A stretch of DNA of 64,000 nucleotides from an uncultured bacterium (GCA_949288455.1 CASEKF010000033.1:1244-65243), one strand, 5' to 3'. Counted from the first letter of the stretch, positions 4,423 to 61,000 are shown. Notes: generated from the letters alone by a model not told the origin. Made by a program: numbers and translations.

Positions 4423-5241
4423 TCAGGACGCGGCGATAATATCTTCAAGAAGCGAAGCTGCCACGGCTTTCTTAAAATCGCCGTTTCCTCTTAAATCCGT
4501 TCTAGCCGGAGCCATTTGATTCAAAGTTTCTCCGATAAGCGAAGAAATTTTATCGTCATCATAATTTTTGCCTTCTAACGCTTCTTCAAGCTCATAAAGA
4601 CGAACAGGCTTATCATAAAGCCCGCCGGCAGCTATTTTAAGATCCGTCATAGTCGTGCCTAAAGGAGTATAGAAAACAGCCATCTTTATAACGGGCAAAT
4701 CGTTCGAATTACGAGCGAAGCGAGCGCTTTTAAAGAAAAAAGGCTCTCTGTCTTCCTTTACTAAAATATTAGTTATTAAGCCGGATTTTGAAGGAGGACG
4801 CATAAGAAAATCCTCGACAGACTCTCGTCTTTCGCCTTCCGAAGTAATCGAAACAACTTCAGCCTCAAGAACTAAAAATAAAGGGAGAAAATCGCTTCGA
4901 GTATATCTGGAACCTAATACTCCTCCCACAGTAGCCATATTTCTTATGTTTTTAGAAACTATCTTGCAAGATTTTAAAATTTCCTCTAAAGGATAATTAT
5001 CTTTCATAACTCCGCCGTTAAAAAGTTCCGTTAAAGTAGTCATCGCTCCTATACTAATAAATCCGGTCTGTCTTTCGATAGATTTTAAACCTAATTTATG
5101 AAGCGATATTAATTTTTTAGCAGACTTTTTTGTCCAGGCGTTTAAAATAGTTCCTCCGCCCAGATAGAACGCTCTTTTCAAAGTCTCTTTCAGATTTACG
5201 GCTTCCGATACCGTCTCTGGAATATAAAATTCCGAACTCAT
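4423..5241 (-). CDS. FAD-binding subunit of molybdopterin dehydrogenase (CoxM/XdhB-like)
   Basis: 272 aa with an 'FYLGGGT' FAD-binding PCMH-type motif. Stop lies 18 nt before the Mo-subunit start. Confidence 0.7.
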   Translation of the reverse strand: MSSEFYIPETVSEAVNLKETLKRAFYLGGGTILNAWTKKSAKKLISLHKLGLKSIERQTGFISIGAMTTLTELFNGGVMKDNYPLEEILKSCKIVSKNIRNMATVGGVLGSRYTRSDFLPLFLVLEAEVVSITSEGERRESVEDFLMRPPSKSGLITNILVKEDREPFFFKSARFARNSNDLPVIKMAVFYTPLGTTMTDLKIAAGGLYDKPVRLYELEEALEGKNYDDDKISSLIGETLNQMAPARTDLRGNGDFKKAVAASLLEDIIAAS

Positions 5242-13355: not shown

Positions 13356-13469
13356 ATCGCGTACTCGTTTATAATAAAGATTATGGTGACATTAAGAAAC
13401 ATAAAATAGTCAAAGTAAAAAAATACGAATTCTACGTTCCATTATAATATTTTCATAAAAATTAAAAAA

Positions 13470-16208: not shown

Positions 16209-16361
16209 AAGTACAAATCTCCATTATTCCTCAAAAGTTACGTAAGGTCTTAACGATTCTAATAAGTCCGTCATTTTATTCGTATTCATGATAAACAGCT
16301 GCCCCATTAATTTATAAGGTCCGCGAATAAAATTTATTTAAGAAGTTTTATCGCGATATCT

Positions 16362-45900: not shown

Positions 45901-47759
45901 AAATTTCTTCCGAAATCATTTACGTCGCGTACGTCAATTCCGGATGAAGAATTGTCGCACAAAGCGGCAAAAACCATTCCGCTTCCTTTTTCAGCGTTTT
46001 TGGCATAAAAAGACACGTCTGCCTTTTCTCCGGTATTAAACGTGTCTTTAGCGAGCTCGGCGTTTAAAAGAGGCTTGTCTATGCCCATTATATATACGGG
46101 AAAAACTTTTTGTTCCAATACCCCTTCCAAATCCATTCTTTGGATAATAATTTCGCATACGCCTTCAATATCTTCAGGAATGAAAAAATCAAAACTTGTC
46201 TCTGGAATTTCAACTTTCGTCATATCTGACTTAACAATTACTCCGTCTTTAGAAAGAGAAATTAAAACCGGTTCGGCGTCCGAAGACGAATAAATCTTTA
46301 AACCGGCGTTGCTTCCGGCCTTCATACAAGAATTTAAAAGACGAACGGAGAAGGAAGACACGGAAGTATAAGCGGAAAAATCAAAAGGAATTTTGCGAAA
46401 CGCTCCGTTCGGCGCAGTTATTTCAAATATAGGCACGGATCCGATTTCCAAAGCCGGATCAATTTCGAGCTCAGCTAAACCGGCTTTATCGCTTTTAATC
46501 GAAACCTCGCCGTTTTTCAGCCTAACTTTCAGGTTTGCGGAAACTGGAGAGCCATCCGGAAGACAAGTGAAAACAAATAAACGATTAGGAGTTCCGGGAG
46601 TAAGAGAATTGCCTTCGGGAATAAAAGATACGAGAAAAGGCTCGTCCGATATTTTATAGGAAGCGGAAGCCTCGGCAAAGGAACTGTCTAGGCGCTTAGC
46701 CTTTATATTTAAAGTCAACTCTAAGGAATTTTCCAATAAGAAATCTTTCTCATAAACCGAAGGGGAATACTCAAAAACAAATTTTCCCGCAGAATCCGTG
46801 ACGCCTGAAATTTGTTTTTCAGCTAATATGGAATCTCCCGTTTTTTCGGTTATAAAAGAAGAAATTTCGGCATTAGGCATCCTCATTCCGTATTGATCTT
46901 CCAGCAAAGCGGAAATTCTAGTCGTCTTCCCGGACATAAAATAAGAAGGATTAAGTTCCGTTTTAATTTTTAAATCGGGGGTCTGAACGGAAGATATTCC
47001 GATACTTTTTGAAGCTGAAACTCCTCCGGACGAAACGACTATTTTATAAGTTCCCTGCCTAAGCATAGAAGCAAGGGGAACTTTATCCATATAACAGCCA
47101 AAAGATAAGGTTTTAGAAGCATTAGAATATAAAATTCTTCCATGCTCGTCTAGCAAACTTATTGAGATATCCCTCTCTACCATCGACGGAGTTTTAGATA
47201 TAACGGCGCATATAACGTCGATATCGTCGCCCGGAGAATAGCTCGAACTATTAGTAGATATGACTATTCTGTTAGACGATTCAATCTTAAACGTTTTTTT
47301 AAAACTTACGTTGCCTAATCTATGATACGCCGAAATATCGCATACGGCTTCTCCCGAAATATAAGAAGGTATATACGAAGACAAGAGCGCGTAACCGGAA
47401 GAATCAGACTTAGCTTCGGCTTTCCCGAATATCAGTCCCGCGGAATCGCGAAAACTAACGGTAACTAAAGCCCCGTTAACGGGCGTATTAGTCTCAGCGT
47501 CTTTAAGCGCGCATATCAAGGTAAAATCGGAATCAGAATAAGGGGTTTCCGGCGACAGCATAAATATCTGCAAATTTCCTTTAAAATATCCGGAAAAGGA
47601 TATCCATAAAGTAACGGCCGCAAAAACGATCAAAAGAATTGCCGCGACTCGTTTAATTAAAATATTATTTCGTTCGGACAAAGAAAACAGCTTCATAAAA
47701 TACGCTCCAAAAATTCGTTTTTTTGCCGGGCGATGGACGCATAATACCAGAAAATCCAA
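42915..47759 (-). CDS. Giant polytopic membrane protein with alpha-macroglobulin-like MG/Ig domains, a central six-TM block and an alpha-alpha toroid domain; thioester motif not found
   Basis: 1614-aa ORF. Probable start is the internal Met at 47696 (MKLFSLSERN). There is an N-terminal signal anchor, repeated beta-sandwich segments, several strongly hydrophobic helices around aa 680-900, toroid-like signatures (GSWEDNVRITSKVLYSL, TGIWYSSPATADVLETL) and a C-terminal DUF11-like beta domain. Stop overlaps the next gene's start by 4 nt. Confidence 0.6.
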   Translation of the reverse strand: MDFLVLCVHRPAKKRIFGAYFMKLFSLSERNNILIKRVAAILLIVFAAVTLWISFSGYFKGNLQIFMLSPETPYSDSDFTLICALKDAETNTPVNGALVTVSFRDSAGLIFGKAEAKSDSSGYALLSSYIPSYISGEAVCDISAYHRLGNVSFKKTFKIESSNRIVISTNSSSYSPGDDIDVICAVISKTPSMVERDISISLLDEHGRILYSNASKTLSFGCYMDKVPLASMLRQGTYKIVVSSGGVSASKSIGISSVQTPDLKIKTELNPSYFMSGKTTRISALLEDQYGMRMPNAEISSFITEKTGDSILAEKQISGVTDSAGKFVFEYSPSVYEKDFLLENSLELTLNIKAKRLDSSFAEASASYKISDEPFLVSFIPEGNSLTPGTPNRLFVFTCLPDGSPVSANLKVRLKNGEVSIKSDKAGLAELEIDPALEIGSVPIFEITAPNGAFRKIPFDFSAYTSVSSFSVRLLNSCMKAGSNAGLKIYSSSDAEPVLISLSKDGVIVKSDMTKVEIPETSFDFFIPEDIEGVCEIIIQRMDLEGVLEQKVFPVYIMGIDKPLLNAELAKDTFNTGEKADVSFYAKNAEKGSGMVFAALCDNSSSGIDVRDVNDFGRNFVNYFKKRPVFFRESMDIGSSEIQSICRIVLSESYSKIPGFYFEDIYKLKSDRSAEAKISYYKRLFSYFFKVCLVVSLLAFFGLLFYALKECFASLFFKKEPDPFDSDDIPGAFIFTFGLPFILFIVFLTALCLMSIKSMDVSEFFTSRYALAVDALAVCLLFVYLMFLAHFLHRRVNKPADRAFINILSFTIVYIFAVTIAGLLVIISSLNLWDIWNYRTLFSSNILISELSVMSFLLLPVLTLVLTYLKLSKPENEKVFRPVFLTGILLAACFIFFISYKGYARFLSSTPFISSLSDPKPQTASLMRTETGNNDFARYEPFSSGEWIDFFNVKLSPSGSAKTSFIAPSASGKFSLMAAAFTGKGVNFSEPVDFEVKRPYSIAFNASRTMYKGDRLKCFANIKNHSNSSEEISVLIKGEGMIKCDSSSPFKIKLMPYETISLPIWVSAEKEGKGRIIASLNCGFYRDSKYENITIPARYALDERSAGGRFSGSVSQRIRFSDEELKTMEGIELSVYPGILSHYISCFDSFADDDRHNCIYYVNMIKISSSILDYLSSSSSEYMKRFKYSLACNVQNVISYGDPDGSFALTHNSKADLWITSSAVEALIMSKKHIFVDPKIIDSSVKWIFNLQKKNGSWEDNVRITSKVLYSLSKSGYSGSPEFKKSLNWLKKNILASKDPYALAYAALTFYKIDEELTGKIAGLINKNALHTHDIVCWNALEGLYSALPGKPENVQATALCLRVLLKSGGYRDVVKRAVDYIMQTRHRTGIWYSSPATADVLETLSLVFDNNLPEGDINVGISVNDALFYATYNKKYNRIVNLNLDKRLLKADNIFKIQIPGEISGSYLFSIKNDEEKVLPSSDLKNLKIYSHTSESEVSLGQTIKYSVSVVNSGDTEIRNLVLEIPYIPGFSPELSFLEDSDIGGYLFDNAKVTIYINKLEPKRRLSKSLYFKSVQEGSLTVPPASVYLLMNSYDRVYAMPKKLKTESLKKGS

Positions 47760-47783: not shown

Positions 47784-48491
47784 TTATATGCAATTCGGCG
47801 ATTCAATTAAAAATTCGCGCAAATCCGGAAAATAAATAACCGGTTCAACTTCGTCCTCTGAACAGACTATTGTCATAAAGTCGTCGCCGTAAGGCATCCG
47901 TTTAAAAAAATAATCTCTGTACTCTAAAGGATAAATAACTTTCAATCGTACAAGATCAAAAATAATATTTTCCGACATTAGTTTCCAGACGCTTATTCCC
48001 TTAGCTTTAGCTAAAGATTCCCTCAAGCACCATGCGGTATAAAAAGATTGGGCTTGATCAGGGGAAGACGCGATAAAATCATATTCTCTTCGGCTAAAAT
48101 AACGAAAAGAAATACGGTTAAAATCTTTTCTTTCTAATTTTTCGCAATCTATTCCTACCGGCAAATCTGACACGGCTATAAAACATTTGCCGCCGGAATG
48201 ACTCATATTAAATTCAACTCCGTCCGTTCCTGGTTTTCCATAAATAGAATAGTTAAATTTAACGTTCTGAGGCTCGCAGCCGATATATCTAGAAACTACC
48301 GTTCTTAAAAGTCCTCTGCAAATGATAAAACGCTCCCCTGAAGAAGCGTTTTTATAATTCAAAGCTCGTTCCGTTTCGTCTGCGGAAAGAAAATGTTTCA
48401 TCGAGCATAGTAATCTTCCGTCTATAGCAAATTCAAAGCAATCACACCAAGCCATGTTCAAAAGCCCACCTTCTAAGCCTTTCCAAGCCAT
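47784..48491 (-). CDS. Sfp-type 4'-phosphopantetheinyl transferase (PfaE/EntD-like)
   Basis: Motifs YGKPG, FNMSHSG, VGIDCE and WCLRESLAKAKG. Start is ambiguous (48491, 48455 or 48401) and may overlap the oleD 3' end. Confidence 0.8.
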   Translation of the reverse strand: MAWKGLEGGLLNMAWCDCFEFAIDGRLLCSMKHFLSADETERALNYKNASSGERFIICRGLLRTVVSRYIGCEPQNVKFNYSIYGKPGTDGVEFNMSHSGGKCFIAVSDLPVGIDCEKLERKDFNRISFRYFSRREYDFIASSPDQAQSFYTAWCLRESLAKAKGISVWKLMSENIIFDLVRLKVIYPLEYRDYFFKRMPYGDDFMTIVCSEDEVEPVIYFPDLREFLIESPNCI

Positions 48492-49449
48492 CGTTGAAAG
48501 AGACGCTCGGAACGTATCCGAAATCTCGCGCGGACGCGCTTATATCAAACCAATGATCGCATGAAAATTCCTTAACTACAAATCTTGTAAGAAGCGGTTC
48601 GTCCTTTCTGCCGCTTATAAAGTAATAAAACTCCAATAAAGAACCGGCGGCATACGCCAAAGGCTCCGGGATATCTCTTTTAATGGAACTTAAATTAAAT
48701 TTCTCAAGTATTGAGTTTAAAATCTCGTTAAGAGGCTTAGGAGAACCGTCGGTTATAAAATAAGCCTTTCCGGCGCATTTTGACCATTCTGAAGACGCCA
48801 GTTTCTTAAGCGCGAGAATATGAGCTATAACGGCGTTGTCTATATAAGTTATGTCGATTATATTGTTTCCTCCGTTTACCAAGGTCATAGTCCCGGCTTT
48901 TGCCCTTGCGATAAGACGAGGTATAAGATGTCTGTCGCCAGGGCCCCATATAAGATGAGGGCGAAGAGAAATCGTTCGAAAATCGGGAGAAGACGCGCTC
49001 AAAACAAGTTTCTCAGCCATAGCCTTCGTCTTAGGATAATGAGAGTAATACTTCTCGGGATAAGGAGCCGTCTCATCTATTCCTTTTTGATCCTTCATGT
49101 CGAAAACCGCGCTGGGAGTCCCGGTATAAACGAAAACTTTAACTCCGCATTTCAAACAAACGTCTAGTAAATTCTGAACAGAAACGACGTTGCTTAAATA
49201 ATAATCTTTATACTCTCCCCAAATTCCAGGCTTAGCGGCGGTATGAATCACGGCTTCGACGCCGTCTAAACATGTTTCGACATAACTTTTGTCAGACAAA
49301 TCTCCCATAAAAACTCTATCCGATATCGAAGATAAAGCTTTAGACGGATCTCTTCTAACGGCGATAAAAAGCTCATGTCCCTCTTCCTTCAATCGTTTGG
49401 CCAAAGCTCCGCCAAGGAAACCGTTAGCTCCGGTTAAAAGCACTTTCAT
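48442..49449 (-). CDS. oleD: OleD, NAD(P)-dependent 3-beta-HSD/epimerase-family reductase of the olefin pathway
   Basis: TGANGFLGGALAKRL Rossmann motif and YxxxK region (YSHYPKTKA). Position and size fit OleD. Start overlaps the oleC stop in an ATGA arrangement. Confidence 0.75.
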   Translation of the reverse strand: MKVLLTGANGFLGGALAKRLKEEGHELFIAVRRDPSKALSSISDRVFMGDLSDKSYVETCLDGVEAVIHTAAKPGIWGEYKDYYLSNVVSVQNLLDVCLKCGVKVFVYTGTPSAVFDMKDQKGIDETAPYPEKYYSHYPKTKAMAEKLVLSASSPDFRTISLRPHLIWGPGDRHLIPRLIARAKAGTMTLVNGGNNIIDITYIDNAVIAHILALKKLASSEWSKCAGKAYFITDGSPKPLNEILNSILEKFNLSSIKRDIPEPLAYAAGSLLEFYYFISGRKDEPLLTRFVVKEFSCDHWFDISASARDFGYVPSVSFNDGLERLRRWAFEHGLV

Positions 49450-51098
49450 TTTCCCACCGCCCATACGGCTAATTTTTCTCTAAAGATCTTAGCGTTATGC
49501 CTGATGTCGACAGGGAAAGACGGATGAATAAGAAATTTTTCTATATTTTCGGTGTGTTTAAATTTTTTCGCTAGATCTCTCAAGTCAGATAAAATTTTTT
49601 CCTGAGAAGAAGACGCGTCTTTTTCCAACTCTACGCATAAAACCGGTTTTTCATATTTACCGTCCGGAACGCCGACCAAAGCGGTTCTGTAGACATCCTT
49701 ATGCGCGTTGAAGACCCCTTCTACGCATATGGTGAACATATCCCCGTTTTCAGTTTTCACTCTATGAGATTTTCTGCCGCAAAACCAAAATTTGCCTTCT
49801 GAATCTCTATAACCGACGTCTCCCATTCTATGATAAAAAGAATCTCCGTCATATATCTTTGCAAGCTTTGTCGCATGATTATTGTTATAATATTCCCTGG
49901 TGACAACCGGCCCCTTAACTACGAATTCTCCGATTTGCCCGTCAGGCAACTCAAGGGAATCGCTCCATTCTTCTATCGGATCGTCGGAAATTTTTATAAC
50001 TTTCAAAATTATGCCTTCGTTAGGCTCGCCTATGCAGGCGCCTTTTCCGCATGCCGTTTTCTGTCCGGCTGTCTCTATAATTTCTCTGCTTCCTATATTA
50101 CAAACCGGAAGAGCCTCTGTCGCTCCGTAAGGAGTAAAAATATCGACTCCTTCCAGAAGCGCGTTCTGGAGCCTCTCAAGAGAATCCGGCCTAGCGGGAG
50201 CCCCGGCTGAAATGACTCTCTTTAAAGAAGGAAGCATGATATTTTCCGATTCCGCATACCTGCCTAAAAGATTTACTACTGCGGGAGAAGCGAACATATT
50301 AGTAGCTCCGAAATCTTCTATAGCCGACACTAACTTCGCAGGGTTAGCTCCGGCTGGTCGCGTTGGATCCATATCAGGGATAATTGAAGTCATTCCCAAA
50401 GCGGGGCCGAATAAAGCGAAAAGAGGAAAAGTAGATAAATCCATTTCGCCGGGCTGAATATGATAAACTTTTTTTAAATATTCTACCTGACTGACAAAAA
50501 TAGAATGCGTATAAACGGCTCCTTTAGGTATCCCGGTGCTGCCGCTGGTAAAAAGTATGGCGGCGGCATCTCCGCCGGAAGGAACCGCCATATCGTATCC
50601 GTCGGCATTACATCCTAATTTTCTTATATCGGAAAGAGTATATCCTCCCCAAAACCACTTTTTGCCTACCGTAATAATATGTTTTAATTTTTTCCCGCCC
50701 CATCTAAAAATAATTCTGGCGATCTGAGCGGCGGGAATTCCTACAAAAGCTTCCGGTTCCGCCTCGTCTAAACATTTTCCCAGACTTTTTATTCCAATTC
50801 CGGGATCTATCACTACCGGGACAGCTCCTACCTTAAAAAGCGCGAAAACGATCGCGAAGAATACGGGAGACGATTTCACCAGTAAAGCCGTTCTGGAGCC
50901 TTTAGTCACTCCTACGGACTCAAAACCGTTGGCTATCCTGTCGCTCTCGTCGTTAAGCTGTCTGTATGTCAAATGAGCATAAGCGGTTCTGCCCATTTCG
51001 TCATAACTGCAAGGAGCCGCTACGGCCAGAGCATGAGGACGCTCTATTGCCATAGACGTCAGATAAGACGCTATATTAATATTATTTAAATTATTCAT
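49446..51098 (-). CDS. oleC: OleC, AMP-dependent synthetase/ligase (beta-lactone synthetase)
   Basis: 550 aa with ANL adenylation motifs (TSGSTGIPKG, YGATE). Sits in oleABCD context. Confidence 0.8.
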   Translation of the reverse strand: MNNLNNINIASYLTSMAIERPHALAVAAPCSYDEMGRTAYAHLTYRQLNDESDRIANGFESVGVTKGSRTALLVKSSPVFFAIVFALFKVGAVPVVIDPGIGIKSLGKCLDEAEPEAFVGIPAAQIARIIFRWGGKKLKHIITVGKKWFWGGYTLSDIRKLGCNADGYDMAVPSGGDAAAILFTSGSTGIPKGAVYTHSIFVSQVEYLKKVYHIQPGEMDLSTFPLFALFGPALGMTSIIPDMDPTRPAGANPAKLVSAIEDFGATNMFASPAVVNLLGRYAESENIMLPSLKRVISAGAPARPDSLERLQNALLEGVDIFTPYGATEALPVCNIGSREIIETAGQKTACGKGACIGEPNEGIILKVIKISDDPIEEWSDSLELPDGQIGEFVVKGPVVTREYYNNNHATKLAKIYDGDSFYHRMGDVGYRDSEGKFWFCGRKSHRVKTENGDMFTICVEGVFNAHKDVYRTALVGVPDGKYEKPVLCVELEKDASSSQEKILSDLRDLAKKFKHTENIEKFLIHPSFPVDIRHNAKIFREKLAVWAVGK

Positions 51099-51147
51099 AA
51101 TACGTTAAAAGAAAACCCCAAGACGCAAAATATTTCAATAATCAAAG

Positions 51148-52035
51148 CTAATGTTTCAACGGATGTCTTTCCAAAAAGGAAAGAATATCTCCGCCTGCCT
51201 CTTCTCCGGCATCTTCAAGAATATAATGGCCGGAATACGGAAAAATCTTTATCTCCGCATTAGGAAAATCTTTTTCCCACCTTTCAAAAAAATGCTTGTC
51301 AAACACAAAATCTTGTCCGGCCCAGCATATTAAAACCGGAAGAGAATTAAAATCCGAAAGTTTCTTCTCCGTTTCTTTCAATACGTTCCAAGAAACATGT
51401 CCCGGCGAAAGAGGAACGTCTAAAATAAAAGCCAAAACGCCATAACGATTTTTCCAAGAATCATAAGGATACAAATACATATTTTTAACGTCTTCAGACA
51501 TTTTCTTTTTAACGCAAAAAATATTGGCTCCTTTGGAAAACAGATTCATACCTTGAACAAGAAGAGGCCCTAATAAATTATTTTTACACAAAGCTATCAT
51601 CCAGGGGAAAGGGCGCCCGTCGGGAAGGCCAAAAGCCGCCGAATTAAGGACTACTATCCTCTTGACGGTTTCAGGATGCCTAGCGGCGTAAGTCATGCCT
51701 ACTAAAGCTCCCCAATCATGCATCACAAGAGTTAAATCGTTAATATTAAGACTTTTAACAAGGGCGTATATATTTTCGGCCCTATCGGATAAGGCATAAG
51801 AATAGCGTTCTTTAGAAGGCTTATCCGAAAGTCCGCTCCCGATATGATCCGGAGCTACGCACCTATATTTATGCGAAAGAAGTTTTATTAGGTCTCTATA
51901 AAAAAAAGACCACGTAGGATTGCCATGAAGCATTAAAACGACTTCTCCGGCCCCTTCGTCTATATAATGCATTTTAAGTTTATTAATATCCAAGAAATTA
52001 CTTTTAAAAGGATACAAGACTTTATTTAAATTCAC
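51148..52035 (-). CDS. oleB: OleB, alpha/beta-hydrolase (haloalkane-dehalogenase-like beta-lactone decarboxylase)
   Basis: 295 aa with HGNPTWSFFYR and a nucleophile elbow (VMHDWGA). Confidence 0.75.
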   Translation of the reverse strand: MNLNKVLYPFKSNFLDINKLKMHYIDEGAGEVVLMLHGNPTWSFFYRDLIKLLSHKYRCVAPDHIGSGLSDKPSKERYSYALSDRAENIYALVKSLNINDLTLVMHDWGALVGMTYAARHPETVKRIVVLNSAAFGLPDGRPFPWMIALCKNNLLGPLLVQGMNLFSKGANIFCVKKKMSEDVKNMYLYPYDSWKNRYGVLAFILDVPLSPGHVSWNVLKETEKKLSDFNSLPVLICWAGQDFVFDKHFFERWEKDFPNAEIKIFPYSGHYILEDAGEEAGGDILSFLERHPLKH

Positions 52036-52039
52036 CGAG

Positions 52040-53080
52040 CTACCACTCCAATCCGAGCATCATACAATTCAGTCCGCTGCCTATGCCCATAAATGCAGTT
52101 TTCATATTTTTCTTCAGAAATCCGCGTTCTTCCGCTATAGCCGCAGTTATCGGAAGAGAAACGGTACCCATGTTTCCTAAGTAAGGATACGTAACGAAAT
52201 CCCTGTCTACAGACAGACCTAAGGCTTTCAGCACCGCGATCCTATGGGCCAATCCTACTTGATGGCAGATAGTTCCGTCTATGTCTTCAATATTCCATCC
52301 CGAATTTTTCAAAAACGTTTTCCATGTCAATTTCGCGAGCTCAACCCCATTTTTGAGAACAGCCGAAGAATCGGTCAGCATAAACATACGTTCCAGCTCT
52401 CCGGATACCTTTTCCATTCCCCAAGTACACAGCTTGTTAAATTCAGGAGCGGCGCAAGAGGCGGAATAAAGAAGTTTTCTATCTTTATTTCCAAAACTTC
52501 CGTCGGTAAGTATTAGAGCCGAGCTTCCGCTTCCTCCGGTCAAGACTGCGATTGAAGCGAGAAATAAACCTATATCGGATCCTTCTGATAATTTTCTTAT
52601 GGTAACTTCATTTATTTCTCTTGCTGATTCGGCCGATACGACCATTCCGGCTTTTATATGTCCAAGCTCGATATGAGAGGCGATCTCTATAACGGCGTTA
52701 ATAACTCCAAGACAAGCGTTGCTCAGATCAAAGATCATAGCGTTACGCCCTATCCCAAGCCTATCGGCGGCCGCTGTGGCGGTAGCGGGTTCGAAATTGT
52801 CCCGACAAACTCCGGCGTATATAAGCAGCTCAATATCCTCAGGTCTGACATAGGATTTAGCGAAAGCTTTTGCTCCGGCTTCAGCCGCGCATTCGGCTAA
52901 ACTTACGCCCGGTTCCCACCAACGTCTTTCGTAAATGCCCGTCATTTCCTCAAGCTGTCCTTCGGGTATATGGAGCTTTTCAAAAACATGAGACAGCCGC
53001 TCCTCCAGATCCGACGTCATAACGATAGTCGAAGGCAAATGATAGCTTATAGCGTCGACAAATACTTTAGAAAATTTCAT
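52040..53080 (-). CDS. oleA: OleA, thiolase-superfamily condensing enzyme (FabH-like, head-to-head Claisen condensation)
   Basis: 346 aa, near-collinear with Xanthomonas OleA (FDLSNACLGVINAV active Cys, C-terminal IGSGLNCMMLGLEW). Confidence 0.85.
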   Translation of the reverse strand: MKFSKVFVDAISYHLPSTIVMTSDLEERLSHVFEKLHIPEGQLEEMTGIYERRWWEPGVSLAECAAEAGAKAFAKSYVRPEDIELLIYAGVCRDNFEPATATAAADRLGIGRNAMIFDLSNACLGVINAVIEIASHIELGHIKAGMVVSAESAREINEVTIRKLSEGSDIGLFLASIAVLTGGSGSSALILTDGSFGNKDRKLLYSASCAAPEFNKLCTWGMEKVSGELERMFMLTDSSAVLKNGVELAKLTWKTFLKNSGWNIEDIDGTICHQVGLAHRIAVLKALGLSVDRDFVTYPYLGNMGTVSLPITAAIAEERGFLKKNMKTAFMGIGSGLNCMMLGLEW

Positions 53081-53167
53081 TTTTTTATGTTTCCAAACGA
53101 TAAATTACTTGAATAATTTTTCCGAGATAAAGTTAAAAACCTTCTTCAAAGAAGCGTTATTTATTGT

Positions 53168-56100
53168 CTATCGCTTAATTTTAATCGAAAAACCCTCCAT
53201 AGAATATATATTTCTGCCGTCTACGGACAAAATTCCGTCGCATATCAGAACTCCTTCTTCAAGAAAGCGAGATTTTACCCATACCAAAACCTTAACTCTG
53301 GAATCCGAAGGAATTATCTGCCCTCTATAAGTCCACTTGTGAGAGGACATAGGAAGCAAAGACGAAAAACCGCTAATATTTGCAGAAGTTCCTTTTGCAA
53401 AATAGACAGCCATATATTTCATAAGAGAAATCATAGATTCAAGACCAAGAGATCCCGGTATTACAGGATCTTGATAAAAATGAGCTTTGAAAAACCAGGA
53501 ATCAGGCTCCACGTACAAAACGCCTTCTATGAGTCCTAAGCCAAAAGGTCCCCCGTCGGGATAAAAAGCCGAAATTTCATCTATCATTCCCAACTTTTTA
53601 GAGGGAAAAGGAGAACCGAAAGGATACGGACCCTTAAAAACAGAACCATGAGAAACTCCGGGAGAAGGGATATCTAGATCCCTTATGCCTATCTGATTTT
53701 TAAGAGCTTCTTTCGAAAAGAAACCAAAATAAGTCGTTCCTTCATATACTAAGCCGCGTTCATCGAAAACTTTAAGCGAATAATTTTGAATCAGCATTCC
53801 GGCGGCTTGAGAAACTTTATCGAGAACAACTTTAGTTTCCAACAGTTTGGTATTCCTAGTCGCCGCGCGGATGACTCTGGCTTCTCCGCCCAAATTTCGA
53901 AACGAGAGATCTTCCGAAGAAGTCAAAGCCGAACCGAGATAAGCGGCCAGCCAACCGCAAGGTTGCAGAGCGACTTCCAGAAGGATGGAAAAAGGCATGG
54001 AATCTAAAGAAGATTCGTCAAAATACCATTCGTCTCCTGATATATCATATTGCGCGACAGCCGAAGCCGGAGCGGTTAAAACCCATTTTTCGCCCGAAAC
54101 TTCTACTATTCGATCCAAAAATTTATAAGGAGGTCTTGGAAGCCTAGCGATAATTCTATCTTCGTCAAAGGGTTTATACTTGTCTCCAAAAGCCTTTGAA
54201 GGTTTGCCGGCGGCAAACTCCATTATAGATTCGTTATCATACGCCGCCTTTTTGATTTCAGCTTTAAAAGGCGCGGAAACGTTATGCCATATTGCCTCTA
54301 ATTTCTGCTTACCGCTTCCGGTTAATTGAATGGACATATTGAGCATTTCTACGACAGGCTTATCGTCGGCGTACATTAAAGCGTCAGCTAAAGCGTAAGG
54401 ATAAGGATTATATCCGATTTCTTTTACCGATATTTTAAACGAAGCTTTTTTAGTCGAAGCCGTGACCTGCCCTCTGCACTTTAAAGAACTTGAAACTCCC
54501 TGAACAGGCTCCCAGCGGCATTCCGAAGCTTCCCCGACAAAACCGGCTCTCATTAAAAAAAACCTCAACGTATGCATACAGCACTCGTACATCAAAGTGC
54601 CCGGCATCACATTGTCGTCTGAAAAGTGACAAACCAGGAACCAATCGTCAGGATGAATATCAAGTTCGGAAACGATGGATCCCAGAGAATATTTTCCGCC
54701 GCAGGGCGAAAGCGACACTACTCTGTCAATAAGCTTCATATATTTATGAGAAGGCAAGGCCGCTACCCGTTTTATCGGGAGGTTTTCAAACAGCTCTCCA
54801 AAACAACCTCCCGGATTGCCTTTGCGAAGTTCGTTTAAAGCGGCATCTCCGTAAGCTTCTTCAAAAATAATCTCCACGGGAAATTCAAAACCGTTCTTTA
54901 AAACTCCGGCTACAGGCTTCAAATCAAGTCCGGTACGTATAAGTCCTCTGCCGGAATCCAGCTGTTCCCGCGTAAAAAAGCCCGCGCATCCGTTTGTCAT
55001 AGACAAAAGCTTTCTGCCTGAAACAAAACTTTCAAAATTAAAATAGAACAGCCAAGTTGATCCTTGAGTAAAAAACCTTTCTATATTTATTTCATAACGA
55101 ATAGTTTCTCCGGGAGAAGGCAAAGAACCATGAAAAGATATCTTAGCGTCTAAAAGTCTATAAACGGCCAATCCTTTCGTTATTTTATCGATACCAAGCC
55201 AGGCCGAAAGAAATAAATCGGATTGCCCCGCTTCTACCGCTATGCAAGTCGGTATAACTCCGTTATCCAAATACCAACGATCGGGCAAAACGTCATGCTC
55301 GGTAACGACTCTTCCTGAAGTCAAAGACATAGGCTCTCCCTCTACGCTTATGATTCTATCGACAAGCATTAAGGGTTCGTCTGGAAGTCTGACTCTGGTT
55401 GGATGAGAGTCTATAAAAGCAAATTTTTCTCCTAAGACACGGCCTATAGAGCCTACCGCAAACTCCATGCAGCTCTCTCTATCCATAAAAACTGTTTTTG
55501 CTACCGAAGGCGAGTCAATATGTTCGCAAGCCGAAATATGAAGCGGCTCCGGAAACGTCTGTTCCAAAATACCCGGCCGTAAAGAAGACAAAGCCAATAG
55601 AGAAGACGTCAGCTCGAACGATAAAGTTAAAAATTCTGAATGAGCCCTGCTCTGAGCGGTTAGAATCCGTAACAAAGCATCCGTATCAACGTAAGGTTCA
55701 TCAACGTTGCAGGTTTTTAAATCTCTCTTGACGTTAATATCCGCAGATTGATCTTTTATAAGATTCGGCGAAGGACAATCTCTATTATTCGAGGCGATAA
55801 GAGGAAGTTTTTCTTTATAATTAGCGCGAACGCGAGACGCTTTATCCGCGACGGAGCCCGTTCGATCGGCTGCGTCCAGTTTAAATTTCTCGGCTCTTTT
55901 TAAAAATGGTTCGGGAGCGAGCGAAACGATCATCCCGGATTTTAGAGAAGGAACGCGGCGATCAAATAAAGGCTCGGGATTAAAATTGACGCCAAAGACG
56001 AAAAGTTCAGCGCAAAGCGTAATAAGCGCAGTTATTTCCGATTCGCCCTCCCTAGTCATGTTTACGGCGAGATGAGGCCGATTTTTCAATATAGCGTTTA

Positions 56101-59100
56101 TCATTCTGGAACAAGACTTGCCCGGGCCTACTTCGATAAAAATTCTAACGCCGTCTTCGTAAGCTCGATTTATAACGGCAGGGAAATCAATCGTATCGGA
56201 AGCTTGAGCCAAAATAGCATCGGCTATCGATTCCGACGTAGGTTCGAAACATCTTCCCCATGCCGAACTATAGAAAGATATTTGTTCAGGGTTATCGGCG
56301 GGGAAAAAATGCAAATCGCGGTATTTGTCCGCCACCGGCTTCACAACCTCGCAATGTACTGAGGTGACTCCCTTTATAGGCAAAAGTTCGCAGCCTAAAT
56401 CTTTTGCCAATCTTAAAACCTCATTTTTATCTCCTCCTATAACGCAATCTTCAGGAGTATTTATTATTAAAAGATAAACTTTTTTTCTGTCTTTGAGCAA
56501 TGATTTAATTTTATCAGGCGGAGCCGCGACTACTCCTATGAGCCAATTAATCTTCTCCGAAACTCCCCAAGTTTTTTTGACCGCGTTAAAATCTCCGGCT
56601 AAATCGGAAGTAAAAAGAGACGAAGAGAGCATCTTCTCTCGCATTTTGTCCCTGCTTTTCCAAACCCTTAGAGCCGTTACTCCGGCCATTTCGCCGAGGG
56701 AATAACCTATTGAAACGTCAGGCTTCACGCCTAAAAAACATAATACGTCCGAAGCGATCGAAGACATTGCGGTCTGGCCCTGCAGCAGAGCGGGATGATT
56801 ATCCGCTACGGCTTCGGCATCCATTCCGCTCCAGAATATGTCCGGAAGGATCTGGTCTTTAAGCCTCATATTCTCTCTATCCTGAACGTTCATCACTTCG
56901 GGGAATCTTAAGGCAAGTTCCCTGCCCATACCCATATAATAATTTCCCGAGCCCGGGAATACGAAAGCTAACTTGCCTTTTAAAGAAGGATCGGGCTTGC
57001 CAATAAAAATAGAGGAAGACGTTTTGGGAAAAAGATCAGCCAAATTCCTTAGTTCCGCGGCGCTTTCCGCAACTACGGCGCACCTCAAATCTCCGGAGCC
57101 GATTTCTTCGCTCTCGTAAAATAAACGAGCGGCTTGACTAAAGCTAAAAGCCGAATTTTCCATAAAATCAGCCGCCTTTTGAAGTTTTTTCTTTAACTCG
57201 CTTTCCGAATAACCTGAAAAGAAGAAAATCTCTTTCTTTTGGAAGCGGTGTATATGCTCCGGTTTTGCGGCTCCTTCGGAGATAAAAATTTTTCGCGACG
57301 TCCCATTTATATTTACGGCAGAAACCTCCGTTTTCAAAGGTTCGTCGGCTCTGTTTCTAAGAGCGTAGGAGCCGAAAAAGCGATATCTGTCTTTCAAAAA
57401 AAGACACTGCAGCGCAAGCTCTAAAGCTCCTCCGCAGCAGCCGAAAGAAAGGGCTTCTAAAGACTGCGGAACTAACGAAGCATTGTCGACGACAGCGCCG
57501 TCTATCACCGCGTAAATTTTATTTCCGTCCTTTAAGGCGTCGTCGAAACGTTTCAAAACGAAAGCGACGGCGGAGTCTCGAAAATTAATCTTTTGGGAAT
57601 ATATTTTTCTTTTAGCGAACGCCGCGCGATCATCCGACGCCATATCTGCGCTTCCGGCGACGGCCAGAGAAATTTCCCCTAAAGACAAGGCTCTTACCGC
57701 TTCGGAGACCGCGGCTAAACCTCCTGTCTCCGCTTCCGACATCGTAAAAGAAGAATTAGAGCACTTAAATTCCCGAGCTATTCGGCTGGCAGTTATGCTT
57801 CCTAAAGAACCCATAGTTCTGTTAGCGTTTAACGGCGGAGCAAAACGATCGCTACCGGTTTTCCACCTAACGTAAAAATCGGTAGAGGAAAAATCAAAAC
57901 TTATTCCTATAAATACTCCTCCGTCCTTAAGTTCGTCTTCGGAAACTCCCGAATCTACAACGGCTTCTTTAGCCGTAAACAACATGGCTTTTTGCTGAGG
58001 CAAGGCTTCCTTAAGTTCGTTAGGCGGAATTCTAAAAGATCCGTAAGGTATTCTAGTCGGATTCATAAAACGAGCCCCGTCTTCCTCTCCGCAAGCTCGC
58101 GCAGATTCAAATTCATACGCGTTATCTGCTCCTCCGGTTCTCAAGGCCAAACCAATCACGGCGACTTTTACGGAAGGTTTTAAAAATACGGAAGAATATA
58201 TTTTACGTTCGCTCGGAACATAATTTTCAACGAGTAAATGAGCGTTTATACCTCCGAATCCAAAAGCGCTGACAGCCGCCTTTTTATGAATAGAATCCCA
58301 TTTTTCAGCCTTCTTCAAAACTTCAAAAGGCGAACATGAAAGAGGCACGGAAGGATCCTCAAAATTAGCCGTAGGCGGCAAAAGGCCACGGTTGACGGAA
58401 AGAAGCGCTTTCAAAATTCCGGCTCCTCCGGCTCCGGTGAGCAAATGCCCTATATTTGATTTCGAACTGGAGAGGACATGACGTTTTTTATTTGAAGGAT
58501 AAGCGTTAAAAAGCGCGGTTAAACTGTCGAACTCAATTCTATCTCCTACCGGAGTCCCGGTGGCATGACACTCGAAAAGCTCTACGTCCCAAGGAGACCA
58601 GCCGGTCTGTTCGTAAGCCTTTTTCATAGATCTTAACTGTCCTTCCGAAGAAGGAGACAAAAGACTTCCGGAAATATCGTTTGACAACCCTACGGCTCTA
58701 ATGATTCCATATATTCTGTCTCCGTCCTTAAGAGCGTCGTCAAACCTTTTAAGAGCCACGATTCCGGCTCCTTCTCCTATGACGAGTCCCTTGCCCTTTT
58801 TGTCAAAAGGAGCGCAAATTCCGTCCGACGACAAAGCCGAAAGCTGAGTGAAACCTATGGCGGTATACATACAATCCGGCCTCGAGACTCCTCCTGCCAG
58901 CATGAGATCGGCTTCTCCGCAAGTCAGTCGATCGCATGCAAGTTTTATAGCGTAAAGGGATGAAGCGCATGCGGCGTCTAAAGTAACAGCTTCCCCCTTA
59001 AAACCTAAAGATTTCGCAAGAGAAATAGCGGTAAAGGAGTTAACGAAAGAATTTAAGGGATTTACCGTAACCGAATCCGCCGATTCGGCCAATTCGCATG

Positions 59101-59506
59101 CAAGCCTGGACGCCGTCTCGGTAGGCAAAGCTATGCTGCCTAATATAACTCCGGCTCTATCCAAAGAAATATTAGAAGAATTAACTTCGGCGAAGGCATC
59201 TTGTCCGGCAGCCATCGCTATCAGAAACAGAGGATCAAACGATAGGATCGTTTCCTTTGAAAAAGCTCCGGCTTTAAGGCGTGAAGGATCGGGCGTATCT
59301 ACGAAACAACCCATATCCGACGCTGCTTTATCAGGAGCTTTCTCCCTTGACAACGCCTGTTCGACAGGTAGAACCCATCTTCCGGCCGGAACATGCCTAA
59401 CGGCTGACTCGGCGTTTTCCACAAGCTTCCAAAAACCGTCCAAATTTCCGCAGCCGGGCAAAACTCCGCCCAAACCGACTACGGCGACGTCATAACACTT
59501 ATTCAT
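53168..59506 (-). CDS. PUFA-synthase PfaC/Pfa3-like multidomain enzyme: KS, CLF-like KS, AT, tandem FabA-like DH domains
   Basis: Probable start is MNKCYD at 59506 (GGAGG RBS upstream). The ORF extends to 59593. KS1 has DAACASSL/ECHATGT/KSNIGH. KS2 lacks the Cys (SEAETGG). AT has GYSLGEMAG. There are two FabA-type hotdog pairs (CHFSDDNVMPGTLMYE and AHFYQDPVIPGSLGLE). No ACP, KR or ER is seen. Confidence 0.85.
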   Translation of the reverse strand: MNKCYDVAVVGLGGVLPGCGNLDGFWKLVENAESAVRHVPAGRWVLPVEQALSREKAPDKAASDMGCFVDTPDPSRLKAGAFSKETILSFDPLFLIAMAAGQDAFAEVNSSNISLDRAGVILGSIALPTETASRLACELAESADSVTVNPLNSFVNSFTAISLAKSLGFKGEAVTLDAACASSLYAIKLACDRLTCGEADLMLAGGVSRPDCMYTAIGFTQLSALSSDGICAPFDKKGKGLVIGEGAGIVALKRFDDALKDGDRIYGIIRAVGLSNDISGSLLSPSSEGQLRSMKKAYEQTGWSPWDVELFECHATGTPVGDRIEFDSLTALFNAYPSNKKRHVLSSSKSNIGHLLTGAGGAGILKALLSVNRGLLPPTANFEDPSVPLSCSPFEVLKKAEKWDSIHKKAAVSAFGFGGINAHLLVENYVPSERKIYSSVFLKPSVKVAVIGLALRTGGADNAYEFESARACGEEDGARFMNPTRIPYGSFRIPPNELKEALPQQKAMLFTAKEAVVDSGVSEDELKDGGVFIGISFDFSSTDFYVRWKTGSDRFAPPLNANRTMGSLGSITASRIAREFKCSNSSFTMSEAETGGLAAVSEAVRALSLGEISLAVAGSADMASDDRAAFAKRKIYSQKINFRDSAVAFVLKRFDDALKDGNKIYAVIDGAVVDNASLVPQSLEALSFGCCGGALELALQCLFLKDRYRFFGSYALRNRADEPLKTEVSAVNINGTSRKIFISEGAAKPEHIHRFQKKEIFFFSGYSESELKKKLQKAADFMENSAFSFSQAARLFYESEEIGSGDLRCAVVAESAAELRNLADLFPKTSSSIFIGKPDPSLKGKLAFVFPGSGNYYMGMGRELALRFPEVMNVQDRENMRLKDQILPDIFWSGMDAEAVADNHPALLQGQTAMSSIASDVLCFLGVKPDVSIGYSLGEMAGVTALRVWKSRDKMREKMLSSSLFTSDLAGDFNAVKKTWGVSEKINWLIGVVAAPPDKIKSLLKDRKKVYLLIINTPEDCVIGGDKNEVLRLAKDLGCELLPIKGVTSVHCEVVKPVADKYRDLHFFPADNPEQISFYSSAWGRCFEPTSESIADAILAQASDTIDFPAVINRAYEDGVRIFIEVGPGKSCSRMINAILKNRPHLAVNMTREGESEITALITLCAELFVFGVNFNPEPLFDRRVPSLKSGMIVSLAPEPFLKRAEKFKLDAADRTGSVADKASRVRANYKEKLPLIASNNRDCPSPNLIKDQSADINVKRDLKTCNVDEPYVDTDALLRILTAQSRAHSEFLTLSFELTSSLLALSSLRPGILEQTFPEPLHISACEHIDSPSVAKTVFMDRESCMEFAVGSIGRVLGEKFAFIDSHPTRVRLPDEPLMLVDRIISVEGEPMSLTSGRVVTEHDVLPDRWYLDNGVIPTCIAVEAGQSDLFLSAWLGIDKITKGLAVYRLLDAKISFHGSLPSPGETIRYEINIERFFTQGSTWLFYFNFESFVSGRKLLSMTNGCAGFFTREQLDSGRGLIRTGLDLKPVAGVLKNGFEFPVEIIFEEAYGDAALNELRKGNPGGCFGELFENLPIKRVAALPSHKYMKLIDRVVSLSPCGGKYSLGSIVSELDIHPDDWFLVCHFSDDNVMPGTLMYECCMHTLRFFLMRAGFVGEASECRWEPVQGVSSSLKCRGQVTASTKKASFKISVKEIGYNPYPYALADALMYADDKPVVEMLNMSIQLTGSGKQKLEAIWHNVSAPFKAEIKKAAYDNESIMEFAAGKPSKAFGDKYKPFDEDRIIARLPRPPYKFLDRIVEVSGEKWVLTAPASAVAQYDISGDEWYFDESSLDSMPFSILLEVALQPCGWLAAYLGSALTSSEDLSFRNLGGEARVIRAATRNTKLLETKVVLDKVSQAAGMLIQNYSLKVFDERGLVYEGTTYFGFFSKEALKNQIGIRDLDIPSPGVSHGSVFKGPYPFGSPFPSKKLGMIDEISAFYPDGGPFGLGLIEGVLYVEPDSWFFKAHFYQDPVIPGSLGLESMISLMKYMAVYFAKGTSANISGFSSLLPMSSHKWTYRGQIIPSDSRVKVLVWVKSRFLEEGVLICDGILSVDGRNIYSMEGFSIKIKR

Positions 59507-59917
59507 CAAAAGCCTCCATACGTTGAATGCCTCTCGGCCAAGCGGACAAACGCGCGAAAATATCTCAGTCAATATAAAAACAAATGACCGCAATAAAAAC
59601 GATTTTATTCACGCTGAAAACACGTTCCGATATTGCAAATTATCCGCTTTAAAAGAAGAAAAACAGCCTATATCATTTTATACGCCGTTTTTCAGCTAAC
59701 TGCATTTAATTCTTTAATATTTTACGATATCCTTTAACTGACGGCTAAAGCTTATGTCTAAACGACATAATTGAAAGAATCGGCGAAAGGCGTCTGATAA
59801 CGTCATATAAAATAAGCCGAGGAATAAACAAAAATCAATTTAACGAGCAAAGTATTTTTCAACTATTTTCAAAATTCGGCGAAGTGATAAAAAGCTCAAA
59901 ATTTTATAAAAAAGCTA

Positions 59918-59946
59918 TTGACAAATTCAAAAACGGAAGATATAAT
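59918..59946 (+). promoter_or_regulatory. Consensus sigma70 promoter of the tRNA operon
   Basis: TTGACA, a 17-bp spacer, then TATAAT. Lies about 40 nt upstream of the tRNA-Pro 5' end. Confidence 0.8.
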
Positions 59947-59986
59947 AACATCACTGCGACGGAAGATTTCCATAAAGCAGATGAAT

Positions 59987-60061
59987 CGGGGCGTAGCGCA
60001 GCTTGGCTAGCGCATCTGGTTTGGGACCAGGGGGTCGGAGGTTCAAATCCTCTCGCCCCGA
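59987..60061 (+). tRNA. tRNA-Pro (anticodon TGG)
   Basis: Manually folded cloverleaf with anticodon loop TTTGGGA and 7-bp acceptor CGGGGCG/CGCCCCG. Confidence 0.9.
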
Positions 60062-60080
60062 TAGGGAGTCCCATTAAAAT

Positions 60081-60157
<77 letters not shown>

Positions 60158-60167
60158 TTAGATACGC

Positions 60168-60242
60168 GGTGAGCGTAGCTCAGCTGGTTAGAGCGCCGGT
60201 CTGTGGAACCGGAGGTCGTGGGTTCGAATCCCATCGCTCACC
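60168..60242 (+). tRNA. tRNA-His (anticodon GTG)
   Basis: Loop CTGTGGA, encoded G-1, acceptor GTGAGCG/CGCTCAC. Confidence 0.9.
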
Positions 60243-60288
60243 TTTCCGTCAGGCAATTTCGTTAATTGTTTAATTTTTGTTTTCATAA

Positions 60289-60361
60289 GGGTCGTTAGCT
60301 CAGTTGGCAGAGCACCTGACTTTTAATCAGGGTGTCACAGGTTCGAATCCTGTACGACCTA
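60289..60361 (+). tRNA. tRNA-Lys (anticodon TTT)
   Basis: Anticodon stem CCTGA/TCAGG with loop CTTTTAA. Confidence 0.9.
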
Positions 60362-60453
60362 TTATTATTGCGAGTCGTCGTTAGTATTCAAGATAAAGCG
60401 GCTCTTACGGGCGTAGCCGGTTTTAATCCTGCACGGCCTATCTTAGTTATTTT

Positions 60454-60526
60454 GGGCCATTAGCTCAGTTGGTAGAGCACCTGACTCTTAATCAGGGTGT
60501 CGCGGGTTCGAGCCCCTCATGGCCCA
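60454..60526 (+). tRNA. tRNA-Lys (anticodon CTT)
   Basis: Loop CTCTTAA, acceptor GGGCCAT/ATGGCCC. Confidence 0.9.
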
Positions 60527-60542
60527 TCGCTCAAAATTTAAA

Positions 60543-60624
60543 GGGCGAGTGGCGGAATTGGCAGACGCGCTAGACTTAGGATCTAGTGGCTTAGGTCGTG
60601 GGGGTTCAAGTCCCTTCTCGCCCA
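60543..60624 (+). tRNA. tRNA-Leu (anticodon TAG), class II with long variable arm
   Basis: Loop CTTAGGA, 3-bp D stem, long extra arm. Confidence 0.85.
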
Positions 60625-60692
60625 TTATGATCGATGACGGTTATAAGATTTAAAGCTTATGCAAGCTTAATTTCAAATATTAAAATTTTTAC

Positions 60693-60765
60693 GCGGAAGT
60701 AGCTCAGCGGCTAGAGCATCGCCTTGCCAAGGCGGGGGTCGAGGGTTCGAATCCCTTCTTCCGCT
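60693..60765 (+). tRNA. tRNA-Gly (anticodon GCC)
   Basis: Loop TTGCCAA, acceptor GCGGAAG/CTTCCGC, discriminator U. Confidence 0.85.
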
Positions 60766-61000
60766 CTTATAGTCAATTAAATACTTGGGGCATAAGGCTC
60801 TTTTAAAATCAGCTTAAAGCCTTAGCGAATAAAGCGGCTCAAAATAACATTCGTCAATTTGACGCTATCGGGAACGCAACTCAAGTGAAATTTACGAATA
60901 TTTAAGCCGCAAAAAATACCTCTAAAATTCAATTTATCTTTTAGGGGATTGGCTTCGAAGAGCGAACCGCAGAAAACGCCGCCTTCGAGCATATTGTTGG

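Follow-up and report, generated by a model that had tools for sequence, protein, structure and literature searches.

In polyunsaturated fatty acid (PUFA) synthases, the chain is carried on the tandem acyl carrier protein (ACP) domains of PfaA, with the ketoreductase (KR) located in PfaA and the enoyl reductase (ER) in PfaD. In the Ole pathway, OleA joins two acyl thioesters in a Claisen condensation, OleD reduces the product, OleC uses ATP to form a beta-lactone, and OleB decarboxylates this to a cis-alkene. Genes of the two systems occur together in several described clusters. Shulse & Allen defined the Type I secondary-lipid cluster, which has a pfaBC fusion, found ole genes to be often linked to such clusters and proposed Type I as a supplier of olefin precursors (PMC3098273). 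In Geobacter bemidjiensis, a producer of the C31:9 hydrocarbon, pfaD, A, B, C, oleA, B, C, D, and pfaE stand in tandem (Yoshida et al., 2016; PMC4882568), the pfa and ole genes of Photobacterium profundum SS9 are adjacent (PMC6463001), and in vivo work identified OleA as the link between the output of a Pfa synthase and the making of hydrocarbons (Allemann et al., 2019; PMC6463001). Planctomyces limnophilus has the Type J locus of two genes, pfaD-pfaA only (PMC3098273). Here we describe a related locus in a 64,000-nucleotide stretch of DNA from an uncultured bacterium (GCA_949288455.1, CASEKF010000033.1:1244-65243), called the window below. Its sequence indicates a pfaBC-oleABCD-pfaE operon, i.e., the downstream two-thirds of a Type I pfa/ole supercluster (pfaD-pfaA-pfaBC-oleABCD-pfaE). 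The locus is a lineage-specific variant, free of pfaD and pfaA and found in gut Xenobia, of a known published cluster, and as such of modest interest.

The six-gene operon and its products

The minus strand between positions 47784 and 59593 holds six collinear open reading frames (ORFs) of 2141, 346, 295, 550, 340, and 235 aa when each is read from its earliest start. In 5' to 3' order, they correspond to pfaBC, whose product has the domain order ketosynthase (KS), chain-length factor (CLF), acyltransferase (AT), and two dehydratases (DH), to oleA, oleB, oleC, and oleD, and to a gene for an Sfp-type phosphopantetheinyl transferase (PPTase). An ORF check found these genes where a preliminary description of this DNA had placed them, and the intervals given there are all borne out. 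An 87-nt spacer separates the pfaBC stop (53168) from the OleA start (53080), followed by spacers of 4 nt between OleA and OleB and 49 nt between OleB and OleC. OleC and OleD overlap by an ATGA, provided that OleD begins at 49449, the start called on the near-identical contig L083; the overlap between OleD and the PPTase amounts to 14 nt with the 223-aa PPTase call or 50 nt with the 235-aa ORF. For pfaBC, a candidate ATG at 59506 lies six bases past a GGAGG at 59517-59513 and gives a protein of 2,112 aa. The same length is found for the database protein P0001, encoded on the 28.8-kb Logan contig L083 by a copy 99.8% identical to that of the window. Because of the GGAGG site and this agreement in length, ATG 59506 is the likely start and TTG 59593 the less likely one. 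Since the six-gene order is met again in dozens of genomes, the arrangement is far beyond chance.

Pfam and NCBIfam models assign to the large protein the N- and C-terminal halves of a KS, a second KS-like stretch, an acyltransferase, and FabA-like dehydratase matches in four stretches. The C-terminal part comprises two FabA-type dehydratase/isomerase domains with a pseudo-DH stretch ahead of each. The AT region, which scored 115 bits against the NCBIfam model TIGR02816 (pfaB_fam; cut-off 144), carries a GYSLG motif and sits between the CLF and the DH regions. Because of this AT domain, the protein is a PfaB/PfaC fusion and not PfaC alone. PfaC sensu stricto, as in Shewanella, has the order KS-CLF-DH-DH and relies on an AT located on a separate PfaB, whereas the window's protein has its own. 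The designation "PfaC/Pfa3-like" in the preliminary description was thus right about the PUFA-synthase type but has to be extended to a PfaB/PfaC fusion, and its size of "2.1-kDa-scale" should read about 2,100 aa, or about 235 kDa. Likewise, "physically fused" applies to the adjacency of the genes but not to the proteins, as there is no protein fusion with Ole.

The window's PfaBC is homologous over its full length to the PfaBC proteins of Geobacter and Eremiobacterota. Its catalytic residues are intact (KS Cys180/His314/His354, AT Ser936, FabA His1627 and His2009), and alignment shows that the catalytic motifs are kept both in the window and in orthologues only 50-59% identical. A count of synonymous against non-synonymous changes relative to the 99.8%-identical L083 was uninformative, with only 13 differing codons. 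Neither Pfam nor NCBIfam gave a PP-binding (ACP), KR, or ER match in PfaBC. Because it has none of these domains, PfaBC is predicted to be unable to build chains alone.

The 346-aa protein has a thiolase/FabH-like domain and scored 429 bits against NCBIfam PRK09258, over the cut-off of 285. Its best solved structures are those of Xanthomonas campestris OleA (3ROW, 3S21, 4KTI, and others), with 173 bits versus 80 bits for the best other FabH-type 3-ketoacyl-ACP synthase III. In the alignment, equivalents of Cys143 (NACL), Glu117 (FEPAT), His285 (CHQV), and Asn315 (GNMG) in X. campestris numbering are all present. We take these to be functional residues of OleA, with Cys143 as the nucleophile, Glu117 as specific to OleA, and His285 and Asn315 in addition.

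For the 295-aa protein, matches to Pfam Abhydrolase_1 and to haloalkane dehalogenases in the PDB, together with a position between OleA and OleC that is kept in relatives, point to an OleB-type alpha/beta hydrolase. Its score of 171 bits against the NCBIfam haloalkane dehalogenase models lies under the cut-off, as expected for a non-dehalogenase. The predicted OleC has an AMP-binding domain and matches NF045786 (662 bits) and NF045785 (660 bits) over its full length with E values of about 1e-199, below the respective equivalog cut-offs of 900 and 850, which are tuned to Xanthomonas and Shewanella. Against the broader PRK09274, it scored 726 bits, over the cut-off of 478 and with the next family at 191 bits, so that by these scores its membership is clear at the family level. 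The predicted OleD, an extended short-chain dehydrogenase/reductase of the 3-beta-hydroxysteroid dehydrogenase/epimerase type whose position after OleC is kept in relatives, matches NF042422 (349 bits) and NF042423 (346 bits) over its full length, under the cut-off of 580; the next-best family, HpnA, gave 126 bits.

The last protein matches Pfam ACPS and AASDHPPT_N, scored 94 bits against the NCBIfam HetI-like model (cut-off 370), and is 27-41% identical to the PPTases found at the same place in related clusters. The Pfam scan gave no thioesterase match in the six operon proteins, and no search aimed at thioesterases was part of it. Taken together, the domain searches agree with the assignments made earlier: KS, AT, and FabA-type DH domains in the large protein, OleA-D types for the proteins of 346, 295, 550, and about 335 aa, and an ACPS-type PPTase at the end.

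Table 1. Predicted genes, domains, and upstream region of the pfaBC-oleABCD-PPTase locus (window positions).
Feature	Position	Strand	Basis
pfaBC-type megasynthase, 2,112 aa, KS-CLF-AT-DH(FabA)-DH(FabA)	53168..59506	-	Pfam and NCBIfam domains; GGAGG; identity to P0001
KS domain, aa 6-383, Cys-His-His triad DAAC180ASS, CH314ATGT, NIGH354	58358..59491	-	domain match, alignment
CLF-like second KS, about aa 447-700 (approximate boundaries), active-site Cys position replaced (GSLGSITAS)	57407..58168	-	second ketoacyl-synt stretch, alignment
AT domain, aa 848-1153, GYS936LG motif, PfaB-family-like	56048..56965	-	Pfam Acyl_transf_1; NCBIfam TIGR02816
First FabA-type dehydratase/isomerase, His1627 in CHFSDDNVMPG	54320..54772	-	domain match, alignment
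Second FabA-type dehydratase/isomerase, His2009 in AHFYQDPVIPG	53198..53605	-	domain match, alignment
OleA, head-to-head Claisen condensing thiolase, 346 aa	52040..53080	-	NCBIfam PRK09258; PDB OleA matches; residues
OleB, haloalkane-dehalogenase-like alpha/beta hydrolase (beta-lactone decarboxylase), 295 aa, GTG start	51148..52035	-	Pfam, NCBIfam, PDB, position
OleC, AMP-dependent olefin beta-lactone synthetase, 550 aa	49446..51098	-	NCBIfam NF045786, NF045785, PRK09274
OleD, NAD(P)H-dependent 2-alkyl-3-oxoalkanoate reductase, 335 aa; alternative start 49464	48442..49449	-	NCBIfam OleD models; L083 gene call
PfaE-like Sfp/HetI-type 4'-phosphopantetheinyl transferase, 223 aa; alternative start 48491	47784..48455	-	Pfam ACPS, AASDHPPT_N; NCBIfam HetI-like
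Intergenic region upstream of pfaBC, presumed operon promoter, ends at divergent tRNA array	59507..59985		no pfaA/pfaD there

Linkage in related loci and the gut Xenobia clade

For a survey of linkage, one genome per species was scanned, yielding 80 loci onto which we mapped the window's proteins together with Geobacter PfaA and PfaD. OleA lies downstream of PfaBC in 51 of the 60 informative loci, 49 times within 2 kb. The full OleA-D set occurs in 35 of 47 informative loci, and a PPTase, located after OleD, accompanies it in 29 of the 47. On the other side, the C-terminus of PfaA abuts PfaBC upstream in 53/60 informative loci, and PfaD usually precedes PfaA. A typical locus is that of Geobacter sp. 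AOG1, with the order pfaD-pfaA-pfaBC-oleA-oleB-oleC-oleD-PPTase. Linkage to ole is the rule for this PfaBC family. PfaC-like genes abutting oleABCD do recur, and the connection of a PUFA-synthase-type enzyme with head-to-head condensation, as proposed in the preliminary description, is supported by the survey and by published work (PMC6463001). The suggestion of a possibly undescribed unit, however, does not hold, as the literature already describes this Type I arrangement for Geobacter and its relatives (PMC3098273, PMC4882568).

Two loci are organized differently in the PfaA region. On a 59%-GC metagenome contig (L084, 3986-19617), pfaD is followed by about 4 kb of small, unannotated minus-strand ORFs, a stand-alone KR-PS-DH protein of 848 aa, pfaBC, and OleA, and the KS-MAT-ACP part of PfaA is apparently missing or replaced. 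In L085, PfaA is split otherwise, into KS-AT-ACP and KR-DH proteins.

The closest relatives of the window's PfaBC, 50-59% identical, come from a horse-faeces metagenome-assembled genome (MAG), two 'Candidatus Xenobia' MAGs (one of them ruminal), the rumen MAG RUG13580, and several Logan/ENA contigs. Xenobia is a class of Vulcanimicrobiota/Eremiobacterota. In a neighbour-joining tree, the window and these relatives form one clade, with the contig L082 as sister and the Eremiobacterota MAG L086 as next outgroup. GC content ranges from 30 to 48% in the clade and is 41% in the window. L086, the closest relative within the phylum, has the complete nine-gene pfaD-pfaA-pfaBC-oleABCD-PPTase set, and in the sister lineage L082 a PfaA C-terminus (KR-PS-DH) lies 17 nt upstream of pfaBC.

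Within the clade, the upstream neighbor of pfaBC is a tRNA array in the window and L083, a tRNA-Pro followed by a divergent 604-aa ORF in L001 (occupying the place that the 5'-nucleotidase gene has in L047/L091), a 5'-nucleotidase gene in L091, radical-SAM genes in L009, and CinA/HAD genes in L081 and L088. The oleABCD-PPTase block follows downstream in all of these except L001, where the contig ends after OleA. L047 and L087 have no pfaA or pfaD upstream and no ole or PPTase genes downstream; their pfaBC genes (L047 9974-16582, L087 6476-12862) stand alone, with no ole or PPTase gene within the 6-10 kb that follow. The catalytic residues of PfaBC are conserved throughout the clade, including all of those in the lone pfaBC of L047, except for L087, in which the KS cysteine motif is deleted. 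A tRNA array followed by pfaBC is common to the window, the horse MAG L001 (first tRNA of the array), and the rumen MAG L047, and the window and L047 additionally share clpP-tig ahead of the array, with clpP 91% identical between the two. The layout without pfaD and pfaA is conserved across a monophyletic clade. On the simplest view, pfaD-pfaA was lost or relocated once, at the base of the clade, and some members later lost or relocated ole-PPTase as well.

Partner genes and the proposed pathway

Within the 64-kb window, tblastn with Geobacter PfaA matched only the KS, CLF, and AT regions of pfaBC, tblastn with Geobacter PfaD gave no match anywhere, and no ACP-sized ORF was found in or beside the operon. 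A search for small ORFs and RNA families around the operon revealed no ACP gene and no regulatory RNA, only the seven tRNAs. Since the operon has no ACP, KR, or ER, PfaBC would need partners of the PfaA/PfaD type, and the Sfp-type PPTase retained in the operon suggests a dedicated carrier-protein substrate. We consider it probable that pfaD-pfaA is encoded elsewhere in the genome, at a second locus that we infer, and that a polyunsaturated olefin is made. A PfaA-type protein (KS-MAT-tandem ACP-KR-DH') and the PfaD enoyl reductase would be supplied from this locus and primed by the cluster's PPTase, and would work with PfaBC to make a medium-chain polyunsaturated acyl thioester. The equivalent chain in Shewanella is predicted to be 16:4n-3. 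OleA would then join two such chains head-to-head to a 2-alkyl-3-ketoacid, which reduction by OleD, closure to the beta-lactone by OleC, and decarboxylation by OleB would convert into a cis-olefin. By analogy, the predicted product is a polyunsaturated very-long-chain olefin of the C31:9 type, and the long-chain polyunsaturated hydrocarbon named in the preliminary description is therefore plausible.

Such a split system is supported by the retained PPTase and the strong conservation of PfaBC, and it has precedents in the Type J locus of P. limnophilus and in two Schlesneria contigs (L006 and L007), related to P. limnophilus, that carry pfaBC without pfaA. It is further supported by a candidate partner locus, the 39%-GC contig L089, which encodes PfaD followed by the N-terminus of PfaA up to the contig end; this PfaA fragment is the reciprocal best match (79%) of Eremiobacterota PfaA. 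Low-GC relatives thus do encode PfaA and PfaD.

Several observations weigh against a relocated pfaD-pfaA pair. In all eight independent contigs of the clade that extend 2 kb or more upstream of pfaBC, both genes are absent from the locus, and the database searches found no second locus with pfaD-pfaA for the window's organism or for any member of the clade. A homologue search with the PfaA C-terminal fragment of L082 returned nothing above 44% identity and no partner for the clade; the two top matches are split-PfaA variants inside otherwise classical clusters. With Eremiobacterota PfaD, a flat list of matches at 52-62% identity was obtained, with no recognisable partner for the clade. Screening these PfaD matches by amino-acid composition for low-GC candidates led to three contigs that were examined. 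One of them, L089, could not be connected to the window's clade, and a metagenome scan with L089 PfaD found nothing closer than 57%. Furthermore, the lone pfaBC genes of L047 and L087 indicate that pfaBC function is not strictly tied to ole.

The other two candidates also showed no tie to the window's clade: L092 has a classical pfaD-pfaA-KS arrangement, and L090 has a PPTase gene divergent from pfaD on a short contig. In the latter, a 34%-GC Logan contig (L090, 3-2673), the translated gene divergently upstream of pfaD is weakly similar to the cluster PPTases of L081/L088, representing another pfaE-like placement.

If PfaA and PfaD were truly absent, PfaBC might be a left-over with little or no role, and OleABCD would use chains from type II fatty acid synthase (FAS), as in Xanthomonas or Micrococcus. 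We regard this as unlikely. The eight contigs without pfaA/pfaD in cis and the two database searches without a clade-specific PfaA or PfaD are what it predicts, and the lone pfaBC of L087, lacking the KS active-site Cys motif, is a hint of decay in at least one lineage. However, the 6.3-kb ORF of the window is intact, and its KS, AT, and DH residues are kept across orthologues that have diverged to 50-59% identity, which would be unexpected for a useless gene. In addition, the PPTase has been retained, and L047 keeps pfaBC alone with intact catalytic residues. Failure to find pfaA on MAG contigs is also weak evidence of loss, because its tandem ACP repeats presumably tend to break short-read assemblies.

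Alternatively, PfaBC (KS-CLF-AT-DH2) could act independently of PfaA on a discrete carrier, either the housekeeping AcpP or an ACP encoded away from the operon and primed by its PPTase, and pass unsaturated chains straight to OleA with the help of FabG- and FabI/K-type reductases borrowed from type II FAS. Genetic crosstalk between the Pfa synthase and type II FAS is reported for Photobacterium (PMC8174602). The absence data for PfaA, PfaD, and ACP fit this possibility equally, as do the conserved catalytic residues of PfaBC, and the six-gene unit remains unchanged beside unrelated neighbors in five clade lineages, as expected of a functionally coherent module. Nevertheless, we know of no precedent for PfaC- or PfaBC-type proteins acting without the tandem ACPs and KR of PfaA. 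The operon has no ACP gene within it or next to it, and AcpP is normally primed by AcpS, so that an Sfp-type PPTase would be superfluous. Since relocation of pfaD-pfaA, and not a changed mechanism, is the simplest reading of the phylogeny, we judge PfaA-independent function to be distinctly unlikely.

Finally, it is highly improbable that the PUFA-synthase-type module, OleABCD, and the PPTase form a self-contained, undescribed unit sufficient for a polyunsaturated hydrocarbon, beta-lactone, or ketone, as the self-sufficient chain-building module of the preliminary description would require: the six genes are collinear, tightly packed, and recur as a block, but without an ACP, KR, or ER among their products iterative reductive chain building could not be completed, PfaA/PfaD-type partners would have to lie outside the 64-kb window, and the Type I cluster already in the literature contains this block as its 3' part (PMC3098273, PMC4882568).

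Genomic surroundings and comparison with described clusters

Upstream of pfaBC, a 480-bp intergenic region is followed by seven plus-strand tRNA genes (59986-60766) and then by tig and clpP. The tRNA array, Pro-Arg-His-Lys-Lys-Leu-Gly, comes directly after a perfect sigma-70 consensus (TTGACA-17-TATAAT) at 59918-59946 on the plus strand. A pattern scan for promoters and terminators gave counts that did not exceed those from shuffled sequence. Otherwise, the window consists of ordinary chromosomal housekeeping DNA, including priA, secDF, tgt, fmt, rlmN, and fusA.

On the other side of the operon, 24-88 nt beyond the PPTase gene, the minus strand encodes an alpha-2-macroglobulin-like protein of 1,614 aa (TED, A2M, MG2; 42915-47759). 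The end of this gene overlaps by 4 nt the gene for a 700-aa 2Fe-2S/FAD/4Fe-4S oxidoreductase (40816-42918, minus strand), after which a DAO-family flavoprotein gene (39669-40802, minus strand) completes an odd trio. The alpha-2-macroglobulin-like gene follows the PPTase in no other locus of the clade and was ruled out as a cluster member. Because related loci do not keep the trio behind the PPTase gene, a connection with the ole unit is improbable. Further away on the minus strand, a 1,160-aa Ser/Thr kinase with a long TPR array stands beside two atypical Hsp70-like proteins, one of them with a DUF3731 'DnaK-related' domain (9873-18170), and a molybdoenzyme of the xanthine dehydrogenase family, made up of a fused 2Fe-2S and molybdenum-cofactor-binding subunit and a FAD subunit, is encoded at 1574-5241; a thiolase gene follows at 5659-6852.

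Given that the pfa-ole link and the tandem cluster were already established, the locus reveals no new pathway. With it, the range of the pfa/ole hydrocarbon system comes to include gut-associated Candidatus Xenobia, represented by horse-faeces and rumen MAGs, and the locus defines a recurrent architecture in which pfaBC-oleABCD-pfaE is uncoupled from pfaD-pfaA. If the partners have merely been relocated, this is a detail of bookkeeping, albeit one that would cause genome-mining tools seeking a tandem-ACP PfaA to miss half-clusters. If they are truly absent, PfaBC must use other carrier and reductase proteins, which would be mechanistically new for PUFA-type synthases. Were gut Xenobia to dispense with PfaA and PfaD, their PUFA-type module would be minimal and trans-acting, and long-chain (poly)unsaturated hydrocarbons would be made in animal guts by anaerobes of a phylum with hardly any cultured members. 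Only a true absence of both proteins from complete genomes would raise the interest of the locus.

Among described systems, the Type I cluster of Geobacter is alike in having a fused pfaBC followed on one strand by oleA, oleB, oleC, oleD, and a pfaE-type PPTase gene. The window's PfaBC is about 45% identical to that of Geobacter, and its Ole proteins are 41-55% identical to those of Geobacter/Desulfuromonadales loci. In place of the upstream pfaD-pfaA of Geobacter, however, the window has the divergent tRNA array, tig, and clpP, and its host belongs to a low-GC, gut-associated Xenobia lineage and not to the metal-reducing deltaproteobacteria. The Eremiobacterota MAG L086 (GCA_031082125.1) is from the same phylum, its PfaBC is 48% identical, and its oleABCD-PPTase order is the same. 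Unlike the window, it keeps pfaD (568 aa) and pfaA (2,149 aa; PP-binding, KR, PS-DH) directly upstream, and its GC content is 59% compared to 41%. In the pfaEABCD and oleABCD systems of Shewanella and Photobacterium, the Pfa chain is likewise condensed by OleA and finished to C31:9 by OleBCD (Sukovich et al., 2010, as cited in PMC3098273; PMC6463001), whereas PfaB and PfaC are separate proteins there and pfaA and pfaD lie inside the pfa operon. The Type J locus of P. limnophilus shows that the parts of a Type I system can occur at separate loci. It belongs to another phylum and represents the opposite half of the system, and is thus the mirror image of the window's pfaBC-ole-pfaE block.

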